Positions 47,125-54,129 of a stretch of 54,129 nucleotides of DNA are shown piece after piece. This DNA is from Patescibacteria group bacterium (lineage in GTDB: Bacteria > Patescibacteriota > Minisyncoccia > Phycocordibacterales > UBA918). Below the pieces are notes generated by a model. It saw only the letters and a program-made list of their open reading frames with translations, made no database searches and was not told where the DNA came from. Each line of letters begins with the position of its first letter. Position 1 is the first letter of the stretch. A program made the translations under genes and the position numbers. The stretch spans positions 1 to 54,129 of the forward strand of contig JBBTRC010000012.1 of the NCBI GenBank assembly GCA_038065355.1. The letters are read 5' to 3'.

Positions 47125-47208
47125 GGCAGCAGTATACCCTACCCTATCGCGCCTCCACAATCACTACGAATTTAAATGAAGAAAGGAGTGTAACAACTAT
47201 TCTGAATT

Positions 47209-47306
47209 GACCTAATTTTTAATGACTAGAAGGAATATAAAAATGGAAATACTCTTGTGGTGAATGTCTCAATTTTGGACTTTTCCCCGTCCGAAATTGC
47301 TGGACG
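47209..47306. repeat. Dispersed hairpin repeat, copy 1 (module A 47209-47262 plus module B 47266-47306)
   Basis: gacctaatttt...aaaatggaa..ctcttgtggtg followed by gtctcaatttt...gaaattgctggacg; matches 51947-52042 and, for module A, 53377-53435. Confidence 0.85.
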
Positions 47307-51242: not shown

Positions 51243-51449
51243 ATGGTAGTCAGAAAAACCGACCGTAGCTTTGAGTCTTTAAAAATCTTCCCCTACGTCG
51301 CCTGGGCCATTACCATGCTCTTTGCGTTCTTTGTGTATCATATCGCGCTTGAACTTGAGGCGGTGACACGAGACCTACAAACGCAAACGCGAGCCCTAGA
51401 GGAAAAGGTGAACATGCCGGTAGGAGACATTGAAGATTTCTCACTTTAA
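51243..51449 (+). CDS. Small bitopic membrane protein with a coiled-coil tail
   Basis: Start reset to ATG 51243, 7 nt after TATACT; one TM segment followed by a heptad-like segment. Confidence 0.7.
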   Translation: MVVRKTDRSFESLKIFPYVAWAITMLFAFFVYHIALELEAVTRDLQTQTRALEEKVNMPVGDIEDFSL

Positions 51450-51455
51450 ACACAC

Positions 51456-51860
51456 ATGACGTTTGACCGACTGGGTAGGCTGTCGAAGCGATTTATAAAA
51501 TATACAACAGTCGGTACTGGTACCTACCTGTTTGATGTCTTTCTCATTTATCTTTTTAGAACCTTTGGTCACCTCCCAGACGGTACAGCGGTGGCGCTTG
51601 GCTTTATCATTGCTGTCAGTGTAAATTTTCTCTTTAGCTACTTCTGGGTGTTCCAGGGCACCAGACGAACAAAACTTTTGGGCTACGCGTATTTTGTTGG
51701 GCTCGCGACCATTGGCCTTTTTATTATTGTGAACGGCACGCTCTACCTTCATCAAAACCTCAATCTCAATCTGTACTTGGCTCGAACGATTATCGCTGGT
51801 CTAGTGGGCACTATGAACTTTCTTATCAATACCTTTTTCAATTTTAAAATGACGCATTAA
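51456..51860 (+). CDS. GtrA family membrane protein
   Basis: RFIKYTTVG...; four TM segments; VNF..SYFWVF, NF.IN..FNF. Confidence 0.88.
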   Translation: MTFDRLGRLSKRFIKYTTVGTGTYLFDVFLIYLFRTFGHLPDGTAVALGFIIAVSVNFLFSYFWVFQGTRRTKLLGYAYFVGLATIGLFIIVNGTLYLHQNLNLNLYLARTIIAGLVGTMNFLINTFFNFKMTH

Positions 51861-51946
51861 AAATCCCACTTCGCTGTTATGTAATTTGTCCGTGCGCCAG
51901 TATTGAAAGAAGCAAGTAACTATTCAATAGGGGTGCTCTAGGGTTC

Positions 51947-52042
51947 GACCTAATTTTCAAGGAGCCAGCGACTGTGAAAATGGAAGTGCCCTTGTGGTGT
52001 TACGTCCCAATTTCGCCCTCCCGTAGGCGAAATTGCTGGACG
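51947..52042. repeat. Dispersed hairpin repeat, copy 2 (modules A and B)
   Basis: gacctaattttc...gaaaatggaagtgcccttgtggtg then cgtcccaatttcgcc...ggcgaaattgctggacg. Confidence 0.85.
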
Positions 52043-52058
52043 AAAGAATGCTCTACCA

Positions 52059-52140
52059 ACCCTATCGCCTCATAAATATCGGCGATTCGCTTCGCGATCG
52101 GGAAAAATTTGAAGCAGTTCAAATTTTTCAGCTCGCACGG
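52059..52140. repeat. Hairpin module C, copy 1 (second copy at 52398-52485)
   Basis: accct...cgggaaaaatttgaagc(a/g)gttcaaatttttcagc(t/c)cgcacgg shared by both copies. Confidence 0.85.
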
Positions 52141-52156
52141 CACAGTTAAACCCTCT

Positions 52157-52194
52157 GTCCGTGCTCTAGGGTTCGAACCTAGGACCTTTCGAGT
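52157..52194 (-). repeat. Exact 38-bp duplicate of the 3' half of tRNA-Ile (att-like)
   Basis: Identical to 52256-52293. Confidence 0.92.
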
Positions 52195-52256
52195 GAGAAG
52201 TGACTCAATGTCACTTCGCAAGACTTTACTAGATATTTTGCAATTTGCGCGATTCG

Positions 52257-52329
52257 TCCGTGCTCTAGGGTTCGAACCTAGGACCTTTCGAGTATCAGTC
52301 GAATGCTCTACCAGCTGAGCTAAGCACGG
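52257..52329 (-). tRNA. tRNA-Ile(GAT), 73 nt, CCA not encoded
   Basis: Cloverleaf: acceptor ccgtgct/agcacgg, D arm gctc/gagc, anticodon stem ttcga/tcgaa with loop CT-GAT-AC, T arm ctagg-TTCGAAC-cctag. Confidence 0.95.
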
Positions 52330-52348
52330 ACGAATTAAACAAACAAAA

Positions 52349-52490
52349 TATCAGTAAAGTGGACAGCTCCTGTTAAGGAGTCAGTCGAATGCTACCAACC
52401 CTCAGCCTTGTTCGTAAACTCACAACAGCTGCCGCTACGCGGACGGGAAAAATTTGAAGCGGTTCAAATTTTTCAGCCCGCACGGACGAA
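52349..52490 (-). pseudogene. Fragmented copy of the 5' half of tRNA-Ile with two inserts
   Basis: tatcagt [25-nt insert] tcagtcgaatgctacca [module C] gcccgcacggacgaa. Confidence 0.75.
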
Positions 52491-52544
52491 GAATGTCGCA
52501 AGTGACGAGCACTATAGCAAATTTTTTTTGGAAATGTAAGAGGC

Positions 52545-52577
52545 AAAAAATAAGCCGGCAAGGTAATACTTGCCGGC
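52545..52577 (-). terminator. Intrinsic terminator of the 52588-52842 gene
   Basis: gccggcaag / cttgccggc stem with a T-run on the minus strand. Confidence 0.7.
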
Positions 52578-52587
52578 CGGAATAAAG

Positions 52588-52842
52588 TCATTTTGGTTCG
52601 AATCGAGCCTTGAGCTCTTCGTACGTCATGCCGGGCGAAACCTTGATCGGTCGGTACCTCCCTTCCGGAAGGAATTCGCAAGGCTTAAGTTCGCCACCGA
52701 CCCTGATCTCTGCAATGCATAGATTGAGGTCGGCATCAACGTACACGATTGGCGTCGTCAGCCAACCGATAATCGCTACGGCGGCCATCAAAAACAGCAG
52801 CCCTAACGTCGCGCAGTTAATTTTTGTATTGGTAGTCATCAA
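52588..52842 (-). CDS. Small single-TM hypothetical protein
   Basis: TM segment plus a Cys pair; promoter TTGACA-17-TATTGT (52887-52915) and a downstream terminator. Confidence 0.7.
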   Translation of the reverse strand: MMTTNTKINCATLGLLFLMAAVAIIGWLTTPIVYVDADLNLCIAEIRVGGELKPCEFLPEGRYRPIKVSPGMTYEELKARFEPK

Positions 52843-52963
52843 ACACCCTTTCTGTGCTCAGGACTACCCCACCGCCACCGCTGTAGACAATAGCATTATT
52901 TTAATAATATGTCAAGAATGGATACGGGGCTTTTCGTGCGGGCGGGTGCGATATAATTTTTGT

Positions 52964-53332
52964 ATGCGCCTTAGACATACAGTGGCACTCTTTGCCCTCT
53001 TATTGCCGAACGTGATATTTGCCCAAGCTTCACTGCAAGCGTTTGCGGTGAACATTGTGCTCTTTATCAACAACGTCGTAATCTACTTCCTGCTTGGACT
53101 GGCGTTTCTGATGTTTGTCATCAACGCTATCCGTTATTTTGTGCTGGGAAGTACAAGCGAAGAAGGGCGGGAGAAGGCGAAAAATCTTGCCCTCTATAGC
53201 ATCATCGCATTCGTGATTATTATTATTTTCTGGGGGATTGTGAATTTGTTTGTGGTCACGCTTGGTCTCGACACATCGGCTCCCCCGTTTGATTTTTGCA
53301 CGCAATTTGGTGCTCCGGGCACGTGTATTTAG
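52964..53332 (+). CDS. Pilin-like membrane protein (TrbC/VirB2-like CPR family)
   Basis: Signal peptide ending P.VIFAQ, two TM segments flanking EEGREKAKNLALYSII, IFWGIVNL; TATAAT 6 nt before the ATG. Confidence 0.7.
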   Translation: MRLRHTVALFALLLPNVIFAQASLQAFAVNIVLFINNVVIYFLLGLAFLMFVINAIRYFVLGSTSEEGREKAKNLALYSIIAFVIIIIFWGIVNLFVVTLGLDTSAPPFDFCTQFGAPGTCI

Positions 53333-53354
53333 AATTAGAAATTTAGCGCACAAA

Positions 53355-53452
53355 AACAGCCGCCAGATTTTCTTGCGACCTAATTTTTAGGAAGCGTCAG
53401 AGCGCGACCATAAAAATGGAAGTGCCCTTGTGGTGAAAATCTGGCGGCTGTT
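53355..53452. repeat. 18-bp perfect inverted repeat with module A (copy 3, 53377-53435) in its loop
   Basis: aacagccgccagattttc ... gaaaatctggcggctgtt enclosing gacctaatttt...aaaatggaagtgcccttgtggtg. Confidence 0.85.
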
Positions 53453-53462
53453 CGTAGGAGTT

Positions 53463-53587
53463 CTTTATGAGCAAAAATTGTTTCAAGACTAGGCGCTGGA
53501 GGAAAATAATTCGAGCGGGACAGAAGTCCAGTGAGAATTATTTTACCGAACAGCAACGCAGTATTGGGGCAATTTTTGCTCATAAAG
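53463..53587. repeat. 125-bp rod-like palindromic (MITE/REP-like) element
   Basis: Perfect 18-bp terminal inverted repeat ctttatgagcaaaaattg / caatttttgctcataaag and inner inverted repeat aaaataattc / gaattatttt. Confidence 0.8.
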
Positions 53588-53754
53588 TCATATGCTCTTT
53601 TGTCTTATCCTTTGGTCCTGGTCTTTCCCAAGCGTCTGATACCAGTTTCGAGAATTGAGTATCATGTCTCGTTATGTGCTCAATTGAGGCACATAACACC
53701 GACCAATTAGCCGTTATTCGCTCTTCAGTTACCTGAATTGCAACGACGTGTCCA

Positions 53755-54129
53755 ATTGGAATTAATCCACGACCAGCTTCCGCTAGCCGTGCCTTGTTAC
53801 GACTTAGTCCTTGTTATCGAATTTACCGTAGGACCACACGGGGTGGTACTTCGGGCACTTCCGACTCCCCTGACTTGACGGGCGGTGAGTACAAGGCTCG
53901 GGAACGTATTCACCGTGACGTGCTGATTCACGATTACTAGCGATTCCGGCTTCATGTGGGCGAGTTGCAGCCCACAATCCGAACTGAGAGTAGTTTTCTA
54001 AGGATTTGCTCCACCTTACGGTATTGCGTCCTGTTGTGCTACCCATTGTATCACGAGTGCAGCCCGAGGCATCTAGGGACATGCTGACCTGGCGTCATCC
54101 TCACCTTCCTCTCCCGTGAGGGAGCAGTC
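53755..54129 (-). rRNA. rrs: 16S rRNA, 3' portion (gene continues beyond the window)
   Basis: Reverse complements of universal motifs: gacgggcggtgagtacaagg, ccttgttacgactt, cgattactagcgattcc, gtcatcctcaccttcctc; helix 45 with GGAA loop; 3' end approximate. Confidence 0.97.

Follow-up and report, generated by a model that had tools for sequence, protein, structure and literature searches.

We analysed contig JBBTRC010000012.1 in its entirety (positions 1–54,129, 54,129 nt; hereafter the window) from assembly GCA_038065355.1, a Patescibacteria group bacterium from groundwater with a genome of 0.99 Mb in 15 contigs that is rated 100% complete. ARAGORN and Rfam agreed on a single intact tRNA gene in the whole window, a tRNA-Ile(GAU) on the minus strand (52256/7–52329) with a readable GAT anticodon and 71.1 bits against the Rfam tRNA model RF00005 (gathering threshold 29). 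Its leader (52330–52352) and trailer (52231–52255) form an inverted repeat and pair with each other, extending the acceptor stem to 13 bp. Around this gene lies an array of broken copies of the same tRNA, interrupted by hairpin-forming inserts. A promoter-like site with an extended −10 box (TGcTATAGT) stands upstream of the entire array, and no terminator-like site was found inside it. The promoter motif TGCTATAGT recurs upstream of tRNA-Ile in relatives, with TG(C/T)TATAGT present in 9 of 11 tRNA-Ile(GAU) loci of the genus.

The original prediction, made from the sequence alone, had described three partial copies beside the intact gene, and repeat comparison bore this out. Copy i, reported as an exact 3′ half, is indeed identical to tRNA positions 37–74 at 38/38 nt, with an E-value of 1e-14 against the whole genome. 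Copy ii is real as well, although the limits given for it (52349–52490) did not hold: its tRNA-derived parts are 52475–52487 and 52381–52400, with an element that we call C between them. Copy iii, said to keep its pieces in order across three inserts, does so at 51885–52141, in pieces of 12, 14, 16 and 12 nt. Its inserts are a second C (52060–52129), a pair of elements, E1+E2 (51947–52045, 99 nt), which stands where the anticodon arm and some of the T-arm would be, and an orphan hairpin (51897–51932). Taken singly, the tRNA pieces of 13–16 nt reach local E-values between 5e-4 and 0.03; their order is collinear, and other species have them at the same relative places. Copy iii also yields a closed fold with nested parts (z = −3.5). 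The Rfam tRNA model scored no partial copy, even at E ≤ 10, and ARAGORN with introns allowed detected the intact gene alone.

The key feature of the locus, absent from the original prediction, is that the intact tRNA lies inside a further element, X, and that X lies inside an older tRNA copy (Table 1). The halves of X stand on either side of the intact gene (5′ part 52353–52380, 3′ part 52193–52230), and model R1, built for this element, aligned over its full length across the gene in a search of a small database. The tRNA, its leader and its trailer thus occupy the apical loop of the X stem P2. X itself sits between the CTGA of copy ii and position 37 of copy i, so both are halves of one older tRNA-Ile, which is split by X at the anticodon loop and by C at the D-loop. 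The minimum-energy fold of 52150–52495 is fully nested (z = −6.6), with the outer acceptor stem, C hairpin C1, P2 with the leader–trailer stem, a perfect cloverleaf, X hairpin hp3 and the outer T-arm as its levels. The insert modules A, B and C proposed earlier were redrawn as X, C, E1 and E2; the observation that one module occupies the same D-loop position in two copies stood, as a 53-nt repeat (D1) of 91% identity. Two short duplications had also been proposed. The TCAGT string around 52356–52380 is literally there, but the 'atcagt' at 52349–52354 is part of the P2 stem of X and not of a tRNA, so that it is no target-site duplication. The GTGC repeat around 51896–51932 does flank the orphan hairpin, which proved to be unique and not a family member: a search of the genome and of ~1 Mb of loci from relatives gave no further copy.

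Table 1. Features of the tRNA-Ile array and related elements. Positions refer to the window unless a contig is named; C2, C5, C7, C8 and C10 are contigs of the host genome, L numbers are extracted loci and G numbers are genomes of the genus. R1 and R2 are the models for X and C.
Feature	Position	Strand	Evidence
Promoter-like site: CTTACA, 18-nt spacer, TG-extended TATAGT	52511-52540	minus	9/12 matches, TG present
Outer copy, 5′ acceptor strand and D-stem 5′ strand (GTCCGTGCGGGCT) (copy ii)	52475-52487	minus	repeats D1, D12
C in D-loop of outer copy; three hairpins, third a variant; 74 nt	52401-52474	minus	R2 match 52400-52474, 51.6 bits, E = 1e-8; hairpin I5
Outer copy, D-loop 3′ part, D-stem (2 nt lost), anticodon-stem 5′ strand, CTGA of anticodon loop (copy ii)	52381-52400	minus	repeats D9, D13; tRNA positions 23-35, 13/13
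Single complete X with intact tRNA, leader and trailer in P2 apical loop	52193-52382	minus	R1 full length 1-93, 79.3 bits, E = 1.7e-17 (L001:1834-2023)
Intact tRNA-Ile(GAU)	52256-52329	minus	ARAGORN, Rfam
Outer copy, 3′ half (copy i)	52157-52194	minus	38/38, tRNA positions 37-74
Copy iii, 5′ acceptor strand and D-stem strand	52130-52141	minus	repeat D1
C in D-loop of copy iii (C1, Cm, C2; C2 loop CGATATTTATGAG)	52060-52129	minus	R2 match 52061-52129, 95.4 bits, E = 8e-19; alignments A3, A4
Copy iii, D-loop 3′ part, D-stem, anticodon-stem start (TTGGTAGAGCATTC)	52046-52059	minus	repeat D8, 13/13
E2 hairpin element, conserved ends, covarying inner stem	52000-52045	plus	six host-genome copies aligned by eye; BLAST; matches in relatives
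E1 (GACCTAATTTT ... CCCTTGTGGTG)	51947-51999	plus	BLAST; at least 23 matches in relatives
Copy iii, part of 3′ acceptor strand, T-stem 3′ strand, part of T-loop (GTGCTCTAGGGTTCGA, plus strand)	51933-51948	minus	repeat D3, 16/16
Orphan 36-nt hairpin insert in copy iii acceptor strand	51897-51932		inverted repeat I8; GTGC/GTGC direct repeat
Copy iii, end of 3′ acceptor strand and trailer (TTTGTCCGTGC, plus strand)	51885-51896	minus	repeats D4, I6
Second window E1, in loop of 16-bp hairpin (~53356-53451)	53376-53435	plus	sequence match
Third E1 joined to E2, same pair as in copy iii	47209-47306	plus	74% identity over query 88-183
Conserved motif before E2/E1	C8:110175-110190, C8:112797-112812, C10:101120-101134, C5:43046-43060, window 47189-47208

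A mosaic of this kind could be produced during assembly or binning, by a chimeric join of tRNA-Ile loci from co-occurring strains. The 38-nt repeats exceed common k-mers, the locus is 1.4 kb short of a contig end, in an assembly from a metagenome, and many related tRNA-Ile sequences occur as loose ends in the same samples. However, four DNA runs, made on three samples from a single groundwater study and perhaps including the source sample of the assembly, gave Logan contigs that tile the region exactly as assembled, at 51400–52186, 52157–52285 and 52284–53000, with zero differences; this speaks against the earlier concern that reads might not cross the region. In these contigs, a unique 61-nt piece of the spacer had near-equal depth to its flanks, and there were no alternative joints. 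Because the same architecture is also found in independently assembled genomes of other species, an artefact is very unlikely, and we find it scarcely credible for this locus.

Four of the inserts (X, C, E1 and E2) belong to dispersed, structured, non-coding families. X measures ~90 nt and forms three covarying hairpins, in the order hp1 (loop TTACA), CTGT, P2 (a long stem with an A/T-rich tip), TCTTGCG, hp3 and CTCAC. Analysis of 14 copies from relatives with RNAalifold revealed compensatory changes in 15 of 20 pairs. With 46 copies aligned to R1, 98.6% of the cells of 27 pairs were paired and 25 of the 27 pairs showed compensatory changes, compared to 32–52% paired cells in slid-partner controls; 0 of 500 shuffles reached the observed values. 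This larger alignment was fitted to R1, which favours structure, and the RNAalifold run is independent of it. Covariation across distant relatives, the generic mark of a structured-RNA family, is therefore present in X. Model R1 detected X in 58 of 61 genomes of the same genus (0–68 hits per genome). An order-wide sample of 121 genomes gave 62 with X, corresponding to 61 of 119 genera. The host genome carries it at nine places. All 40 copies that we inspected were intergenic, in either orientation relative to their neighbours, and 6 of them lay within 250 nt of a tRNA. The elements also nest in each other, as exemplified by an X within the hp3 loop of another X.

The exact 3′ motif of X was present in 115 stretches of a species-level genome collection, nearly all of them labelled Kaiserbacteria, Paceibacteria/Paceibacterota, Nomurabacteria or 'Patescibacteria group'. 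It also occurred on many contigs of records labelled outside the candidate phyla radiation (CPR), namely as a flavobacterial genus, Acidimicrobiales and Azotimanducaceae (loci L116, L118, L123, L131, L132, L135 and L152 from one record set; L099 and L160; L105 and L110), which are probably mislabelled or mixed bins. In Rfam, searched at permissive thresholds with the locus and with six loci holding X copies, no family was found for X, C, E1 or E2; weak matches to CRISPR-DR19, mir and Pistol were far under the gathering score and were dismissed. X and C, which covary across the order and lack an Rfam match, would, on the interpretation favoured below, be good candidates for new RNA families.

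Element C is ~70 nt long and consists of three hairpins, C1, Cm and C2, whose stems covary and of which the C2 loop CGATATTTATGAG is conserved. Model R2 identified it in 27 of 41 genus genomes, with 0–10 copies each. In the host genome, R2 matched both window copies, a site upstream of tRNA-Ser(UGA), more weakly a site upstream of tRNA-Tyr, and a site inside the 23S rRNA gene. In relatives, all eight inspected copies directly follow a 5′ tRNA fragment that ends in the D-loop, and adjoin the intact gene for the matching tRNA (Ile-UAU in three cases, Ile-GAU in three and Ser-UGA in two). The 23S rRNA copy, a C-like element, is part of a 150-nt insertion in a small hairpin loop (contig C2:81446–81596; L219:1147–1297), at positions ~228–230 of the Rfam large-subunit rRNA model, where 2 nt are expected. 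The first hairpin of this insertion uses 11 nt of the rRNA itself as one strand, and a near-copy of these flanks the other end as a direct repeat. We also considered C as a promoter and dropped the idea, as C occurs downstream of the tRNA in some species as well as inside the 23S rRNA. Next to the tRNA-Ser(UGA) copy, a frame of 603 aa (contig C2:176–1987, plus strand; L220) has large-serine-recombinase domains in residues 21–341 alone, and its 3′ part runs antisense across both the tRNA-Ser(UGA) gene (1743–1830) and C (1873–1952). G054 encodes a serine recombinase ~2 kb away from this tRNA-Ser/C locus, and in several assemblies the tRNA-Ser-linked recombinase gene begins ~200–300 nt from a contig end.

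E1 is also found on contig C2 and, in relatives, inside a C1 loop and inside a T-loop, while E2 occurs at four further places with compensatory changes in its inner stem. A reading of E2 as a CRISPR repeat was rejected, its copies being single and dispersed. The motif (A)CTATT(C/A)(T/C)GAA(T/C)T precedes the E2 copies and one E1 copy, and the string AACTATTCAAT within the orphan insert (51916–51926) resembles it. A second type of core, 'Y', takes the place held elsewhere by antisense X between a tRNA and its 3′ fragment. In the host genome it lies downstream of tRNA-Phe, Gly-GCC, Gln-UUG, Ala-UGC and Tyr (for example at contig C8:140870–141122); it ends in ...GGGGTCGAGA, a hairpin and T(C/T)GTGAC, and is bracketed by inverted (10–17 nt) and direct copies of the tRNA 3′ end. 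Another small repeat, GTCACTAAGTA...AAATCT.CTAAGTGCTCGCGA, adjoins several X copies in the host genome and in relatives (contig C8:123462–123560; L024, L042), which suggests yet more element families.

Globally, 15 of the 37 tRNA genes in the host genome have a direct fragment of themselves of at least 14 nt within 500 nt, compared to 1 of 111 controls in which a tRNA was matched to the flanks of other tRNAs (perfect fragments, other annotated tRNAs masked). In ~0.8 Mb of public loci from related genomes, picked for holding the X motif, a looser test gave 21 of 44 tRNAs. The phenomenon is thus lineage-wide and extends beyond one locus. The fragments run from a loop to 1–2 nt past the gene end, the breaks fall at D-, anticodon- or T-loops, and between fragment and gene lies an element, the inserts being 60–250 nt long and free of open reading frames (ORFs). 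Three arrangements can be distinguished. In the D-loop type, a 5′ fragment (from two leader bases to position 18–24) is followed by an element, often C, an inverted D-loop copy, a spacer and the intact gene. In the anticodon-loop type (Ile, Pro), halves stand on either side of the gene or on its 3′ side, as for tRNA-Pro(UGG) of the host genome, which has perfect 32-nt and 33-nt self-halves on its flanks. In the T-loop type, AAAG and a hairpin resembling a terminator come after the intact gene; next are the T-loop and stem in inverted copy, a core of the antisense X type or of the Y type, a direct fragment reaching from the T-loop to 1–2 nt past the gene, and lastly the original trailer. Here hp1 of X is formed across the junction, with the conserved T-loop sequence as its outer strand. 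The target duplications range from 4 to 43 nt, following the tRNA ends. The elements also vary between relatives: among 12 tRNA-Val loci inspected, X was present in three, Y in some and nothing in others, indicating insertion polymorphism. Together with the differences at tRNA-Ile described below, this answers the earlier doubt that the modules might occur nowhere else and show no polymorphism.

These direct repeats resemble the scars left by integrative elements. Integrases that target tRNA genes classically cross over in the anticodon loop or the T-loop, with the repeat reaching to just beyond the 3′ end. The att-derived fragments described in PMC9897764 as common in prokaryotes consist of an intact tRNA and a direct repeat of its 3′ part, from the anticodon or T-loop past the gene, with the insert in between. 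Kilobase-sized elements could accordingly have integrated repeatedly into the tRNA genes and been deleted later, leaving X, C and Y as arm sequences, and a large serine recombinase gene does adjoin tRNA-Ser and its C. The flanking direct repeat is present, at 38/38 for tRNA-Ile, but the inserts across the genome, 60–250 nt long, hold neither an ORF nor an integrase or recombinase gene. Such a history would have to be repeated at 15 of 37 tRNA genes and end each time in a 60–250-nt stump. Moreover, 5′ fragments broken at the D-loop are as regular and as common as 3′ fragments, an inverted target copy stands beside the direct one, which simple integrase chemistry does not give, and the nested type holds a whole tRNA within the element. 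X is mostly found away from tRNAs, the elements also occupy terminator loops, other elements and the 23S rRNA, and a narrow search for the 3′ end of X, with one exact 30-nt IUPAC pattern, gave 0 matches in 2.9 million viral contigs. We therefore consider an origin from deleted integrative elements improbable.

To place the nested arrangement, we compared 11 tRNA-Ile(GAU) loci of the genus. Two are simple (promoter, leader, tRNA, trailer), and nine have a dead copy that bears C. The dead copy surrounds the intact gene in the host genome, G006, G021, G005 and G007; it is found upstream alone, its outer 3′ half lost, in G002, and downstream in G013, G017 and G004. R1 spans the intact tRNA-Ile over its full length in three of the 11, the host genome and two relatives, G006 and G021 (79.3, 65.7 and 56.5 bits for L001, L002 and L004). 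In G007 the intact tRNA-Ile lies within the D-arm of the dead copy, and a cargo-free X sits in the anticodon loop; the same genome holds a complete tRNA-Leu(CAG) gene in the P2 loop of an antisense X (L005:890–1072, 30.6 bits), which splits an outer tRNA-Leu copy in its T-loop. A 3′ fragment of at least 19 nt is present in six of the 11 loci, and it follows the tRNA of its own species (38/38, 37/38, 19/19 + 19/19, 38/38, 23/23 + 12/12 and 42/43), while the same segment differs at up to 5 of 39 positions between species. Other parts of the outer copy have decayed: copy ii has a D-stem that is 2 nt short, G006 has a disrupted outer anticodon stem, and G002 no longer has the outer 3′ half.

Alternatively, as the original prediction also allowed with its structured RNA on a tRNA scaffold, the nested array could be a functional RNA architecture, in which a tRNA-like outer shell (the acceptor stem and T-arm of copies ii and i), transcribed from 52511–52540, guides the processing, protection or regulation of the inner tRNA-Ile together with X and C, for example as RNase P/Z punctuation or as protein-binding sites. 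The single upstream promoter-like site without an internal terminator-like site supports this, as do the fully nested fold, the conserved loops (TTACA, CTGT and TCTTGCG in X, CGATATTTATGAG in C) on covarying stems, and the 3′ halves that follow each species' own tRNA. In addition, the outer acceptor strands are complementary in every species inspected, including a tRNA-Ile(UAU) locus at which they deviate from the inner gene. Yet the shell is absent from 2 of the 11 tRNA-Ile(GAU) loci, the dead copy is downstream in three, and the outer D-stems and anticodon stems are broken in several species. X reaches 68 copies per genome in either orientation, with 34 of the 40 inspected copies away from tRNAs. 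At T-loop loci a terminator-like T-run hairpin stands between the tRNA and the element, so that elements of this type are probably not co-transcribed with the tRNA. Among the sequencing runs listed as containing the stretch there was no RNA run. On balance, a functional role of the whole array seems unlikely to us, although less so than the integrative scars.

The inserts in the D-loop (C) and anticodon loop (X) might also be introns removed from the RNA, as in archaeal tRNAs with several introns. The positions (D-, anticodon and T-loops) and the occurrence of related inserts that seem to transpose resemble the mobile archaeal tRNA introns mentioned in PMC10714607, and a true group I intron does occur in a relative's tRNA-Thr. 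However, removal of X would leave CTGA + (C)AC and not the anticodon loop CTGATAC, the D-stem is incomplete in copy ii (2 nt missing), the anticodon arm is absent from copy iii, and an intact gene accompanies the broken copies in every case. Neither X nor C had a match to an intron or ribozyme in Rfam. The group I model RF00028 gave no match in 51400–53800 (E ≤ 10) or in the X copies of six loci (E ≤ 5), while it detected the true intron in L025. The tRNA-splicing endonuclease domain PF01974 had 0 matches in a search whose positive control matched four archaea. Bulge-helix-bulge splicing was rejected on the same ground: the leader–trailer stem has a 4-bp helix beside a 3-nt bulge, but there is no endonuclease domain. 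Spliced introns are thus a very improbable explanation. Readings as a tmRNA-like or T-box RNA were also considered and dropped; the tmRNA lies elsewhere, on contig C10.

Our own leaning, a modest one, is that the inserts are selfish, loop-inserting mini-elements whose insertion duplicates the interrupted tRNA segment, similar to att sites or target-site duplications. Read from 5′ to 3′ on the minus strand, the array would then consist of the promoter, an old tRNA-Ile with C in its D-loop and X in its anticodon loop, the only intact tRNA-Ile in the apical loop of X, the 3′ half of the old copy, and a second dead copy with C, E1+E2 and the orphan hairpin. The elements would be, or would once have been, mobile DNA tolerated in hairpin loops alone, because an insert with a fold of its own does not disrupt the helix that hosts it. 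A hit in a single-copy tRNA gene could be survived because the process either duplicates the segment up to the gene end or delivers a whole replacement. The former may resemble a Campbell- or att-type integration or a long target duplication from staggered cuts; in the nested type, a complete gene would come to lie within the element. Thereafter the short, dead outer pieces would decay, as suggested by the 5′ halves split by C, whose D- and anticodon stems are lost in several species, and the uninterrupted 3′ halves could be kept identical by gene conversion or by repeated excision and re-insertion. The tiny, non-autonomous palindromic elements of the original prediction survive in part: the hairpin families are recurrent, non-coding and tied to tRNA, but they are multi-hairpin structures with conserved loops and not simple palindromes.

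Several observations weigh against selfish mini-elements. How X comes to hold exactly the tRNA that it interrupts is left unexplained, as is the source of the inverted target copies. Conserved loops and strong covariation across the order are also expected of functional RNAs, and selection on an RNA stem would also account for the 3′ halves that track their own tRNA and for a tRNA-Ile(UAU) locus whose outer acceptor strands, unlike the inner gene in sequence, still pair with each other. The orphan insert is placed in a stem and not in a loop. No excised or empty form was seen in the Logan contigs, which drop rare variants, and no split X ends enclosing an ORF were found in the host genome, long forms of X or C not having been searched for systematically elsewhere. 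The host genome has no Y1/HUH, IS110, TnpB or rve domains. A serine recombinase is present in 47 of 61 genus genomes and a reverse transcriptase in 18 of 61, and neither tracks the X counts.

The recombination genes of the host genome comprise one Xer-like tyrosine recombinase (on another contig), two large serine recombinases and one reverse transcriptase. The original prediction had suggested a search for HUH/RAYT-like transposases (RAYT, REP-associated tyrosine transposase) or reverse transcriptases. The former did not materialise, PF01797 giving 0 matches in this genome, and 6 of 14 genomes in the positive control; the latter is present without tracking X. The reverse transcriptase gene (contig C8:61598–62671, plus strand; L047, 357 aa) has a group II intron reverse transcriptase/maturase as its best match, at 153 bits under a cut-off of 300 bits. 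The serine recombinase was rejected as the catalyst because X copy number does not follow it: G050 has 66 X matches and neither enzyme, and G042 has no X and seven serine-recombinase matches. The sites at which the tRNAs are broken coincide with sites of tRNA modification. An origin of the fragments from tRNA-primed synthesis or reverse-transcriptase stops was nevertheless discarded, as it fails to explain 5′ fragments that include two leader nucleotides, and the enzyme is present in 18 of 61 genomes. CA follows the 3′ fragment in 4 of 12 cases, which is better explained by the original gene trailers.

Going one step further, X, C, Y and E1/E2 could together form an undescribed class of protein-less mini-elements in Kaiserbacteria-like CPR bacteria that home into single-stranded loops. 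We regard this as possible, and on present evidence rather doubtful. Their targets would be the D-, anticodon- and T-loops of tRNAs, rRNA hairpins, terminators and one another, and insertion into an essential single-copy tRNA gene would be survivable because they restore that gene or bring it along, leaving functional tRNA genes enclosed in their own debris. A host enzyme or another catalyst might act on them, possibly through an RNA or single-stranded DNA intermediate that recognises a folded structure and not a sequence. If true, the class would be a bacterial counterpart of the mobile tRNA introns and split tRNAs of archaea.

Comparison with known systems shows that the locus shares single features with each and fails a defining feature of each one tested. 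Repetitive extragenic palindromic sequences (REPs), bacterial interspersed mosaic elements (BIMEs) and bacterial MITEs (miniature inverted-repeat transposable elements) such as Correia, RUP and ERIC are 50–100 nt long, intergenic, multi-copy, hairpin-forming and non-coding. Like them, the elements vary greatly in copy number among relatives and nest in one another. In contrast to them, X has neither fixed terminal inverted repeats (its ends are the variable hp1 stem and CTCAC) nor a fixed-length duplication, no RAYT/Y1 enzyme accompanies it, and X and C have three hairpins with conserved loops, covary across the order and are coupled to duplicated tRNA segments.

Split tRNA genes have been proposed to protect against integration. 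According to PMC10714607, the archaeal mobile tRNA introns and the split and tri-split tRNAs of Thermoproteales and Nanoarchaeota likewise involve related short inserts at the D-, anticodon- and T-regions, behaviour as transposable units and pairing of leader and trailer. Here, however, the split copies are dead and always stand alongside an uninterrupted gene, the bacterial host lacks a splicing-endonuclease domain, and the same elements are also found far from tRNAs. PMC10714607 also mentions rRNA introns of CPR bacteria. With these our elements share the kind of host lineage and the location in loops of structural RNAs, as in the 150-nt insertion of the 23S rRNA. The rRNA inserts of CPR bacteria are described as group I or group II introns, some with homing endonucleases, whereas X, C and E1/E2 are non-coding and without a match among the Rfam intron families. 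In bacteria, group I introns of tRNA anticodon loops have their location in common with X, which differs in its length of ~90 nt, in the absence of a model score and in that its removal would not restore the anticodon loop.

In full-text literature, supplementary files aside, we found neither these elements nor tRNA genes enclosed by fragments of themselves described for CPR bacteria; related cases might be among the tRNA fragments that Supplementary Table S3 of PMC9897764 compiles for many taxa. If our interpretation is correct, a large branch of the CPR bears a burden of repeats that has gone unrecognised and that remodels ~40% of its tRNA loci, which would be surprising for ~1 Mb genomes thought to be streamlined. 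It would also offer a bacterial system for studying how and why tRNA genes become interrupted, split and duplicated, and bear on whether structure-targeted insertion exists without a dedicated transposase. In practical terms, fragments and nested copies would mislead tRNA annotation and finders of islands (att sites), and the repeats would break assemblies.

Two loci with tRNA-Thr sequences deserve mention. In G022, the anticodon loop of a tRNA-Thr(UGU)-like gene (L025:43–281, minus strand) is interrupted by the true group I intron (78.4 bits in Rfam), and a duplicated 5′ fragment of the same tRNA-Thr with an antisense X lies just upstream (L025:389–476, plus strand). A similar pair of tRNA-Thr-like 5′ fragments, without an ARAGORN tRNA call, surrounds X in the host genome (contig C7:28857–28952).

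The 3′ end of a 16S rRNA gene occupies 53755–54129 and runs off the contig. The genes for 16S and 23S rRNA are not adjacent here, an opposite-strand ORF and then a small ORF following the 16S 3′ end (53755). The tRNA-Ile has its own promoter 1.2 kb from the 16S rRNA gene, the 5′ end of the 23S rRNA gene is on another contig and the tRNA-Ala genes are on contig C5; linkage of 16S and 23S is still conceivable because both genes touch contig ends. An ORF at 52610–53332 (plus strand) weakly matches a domain of type IV secretion pilins (PF18895, 34.1 bits), and on the other side of the array a GtrA-like ORF (51456–51860) stops 25 nt before the tRNA mosaic.

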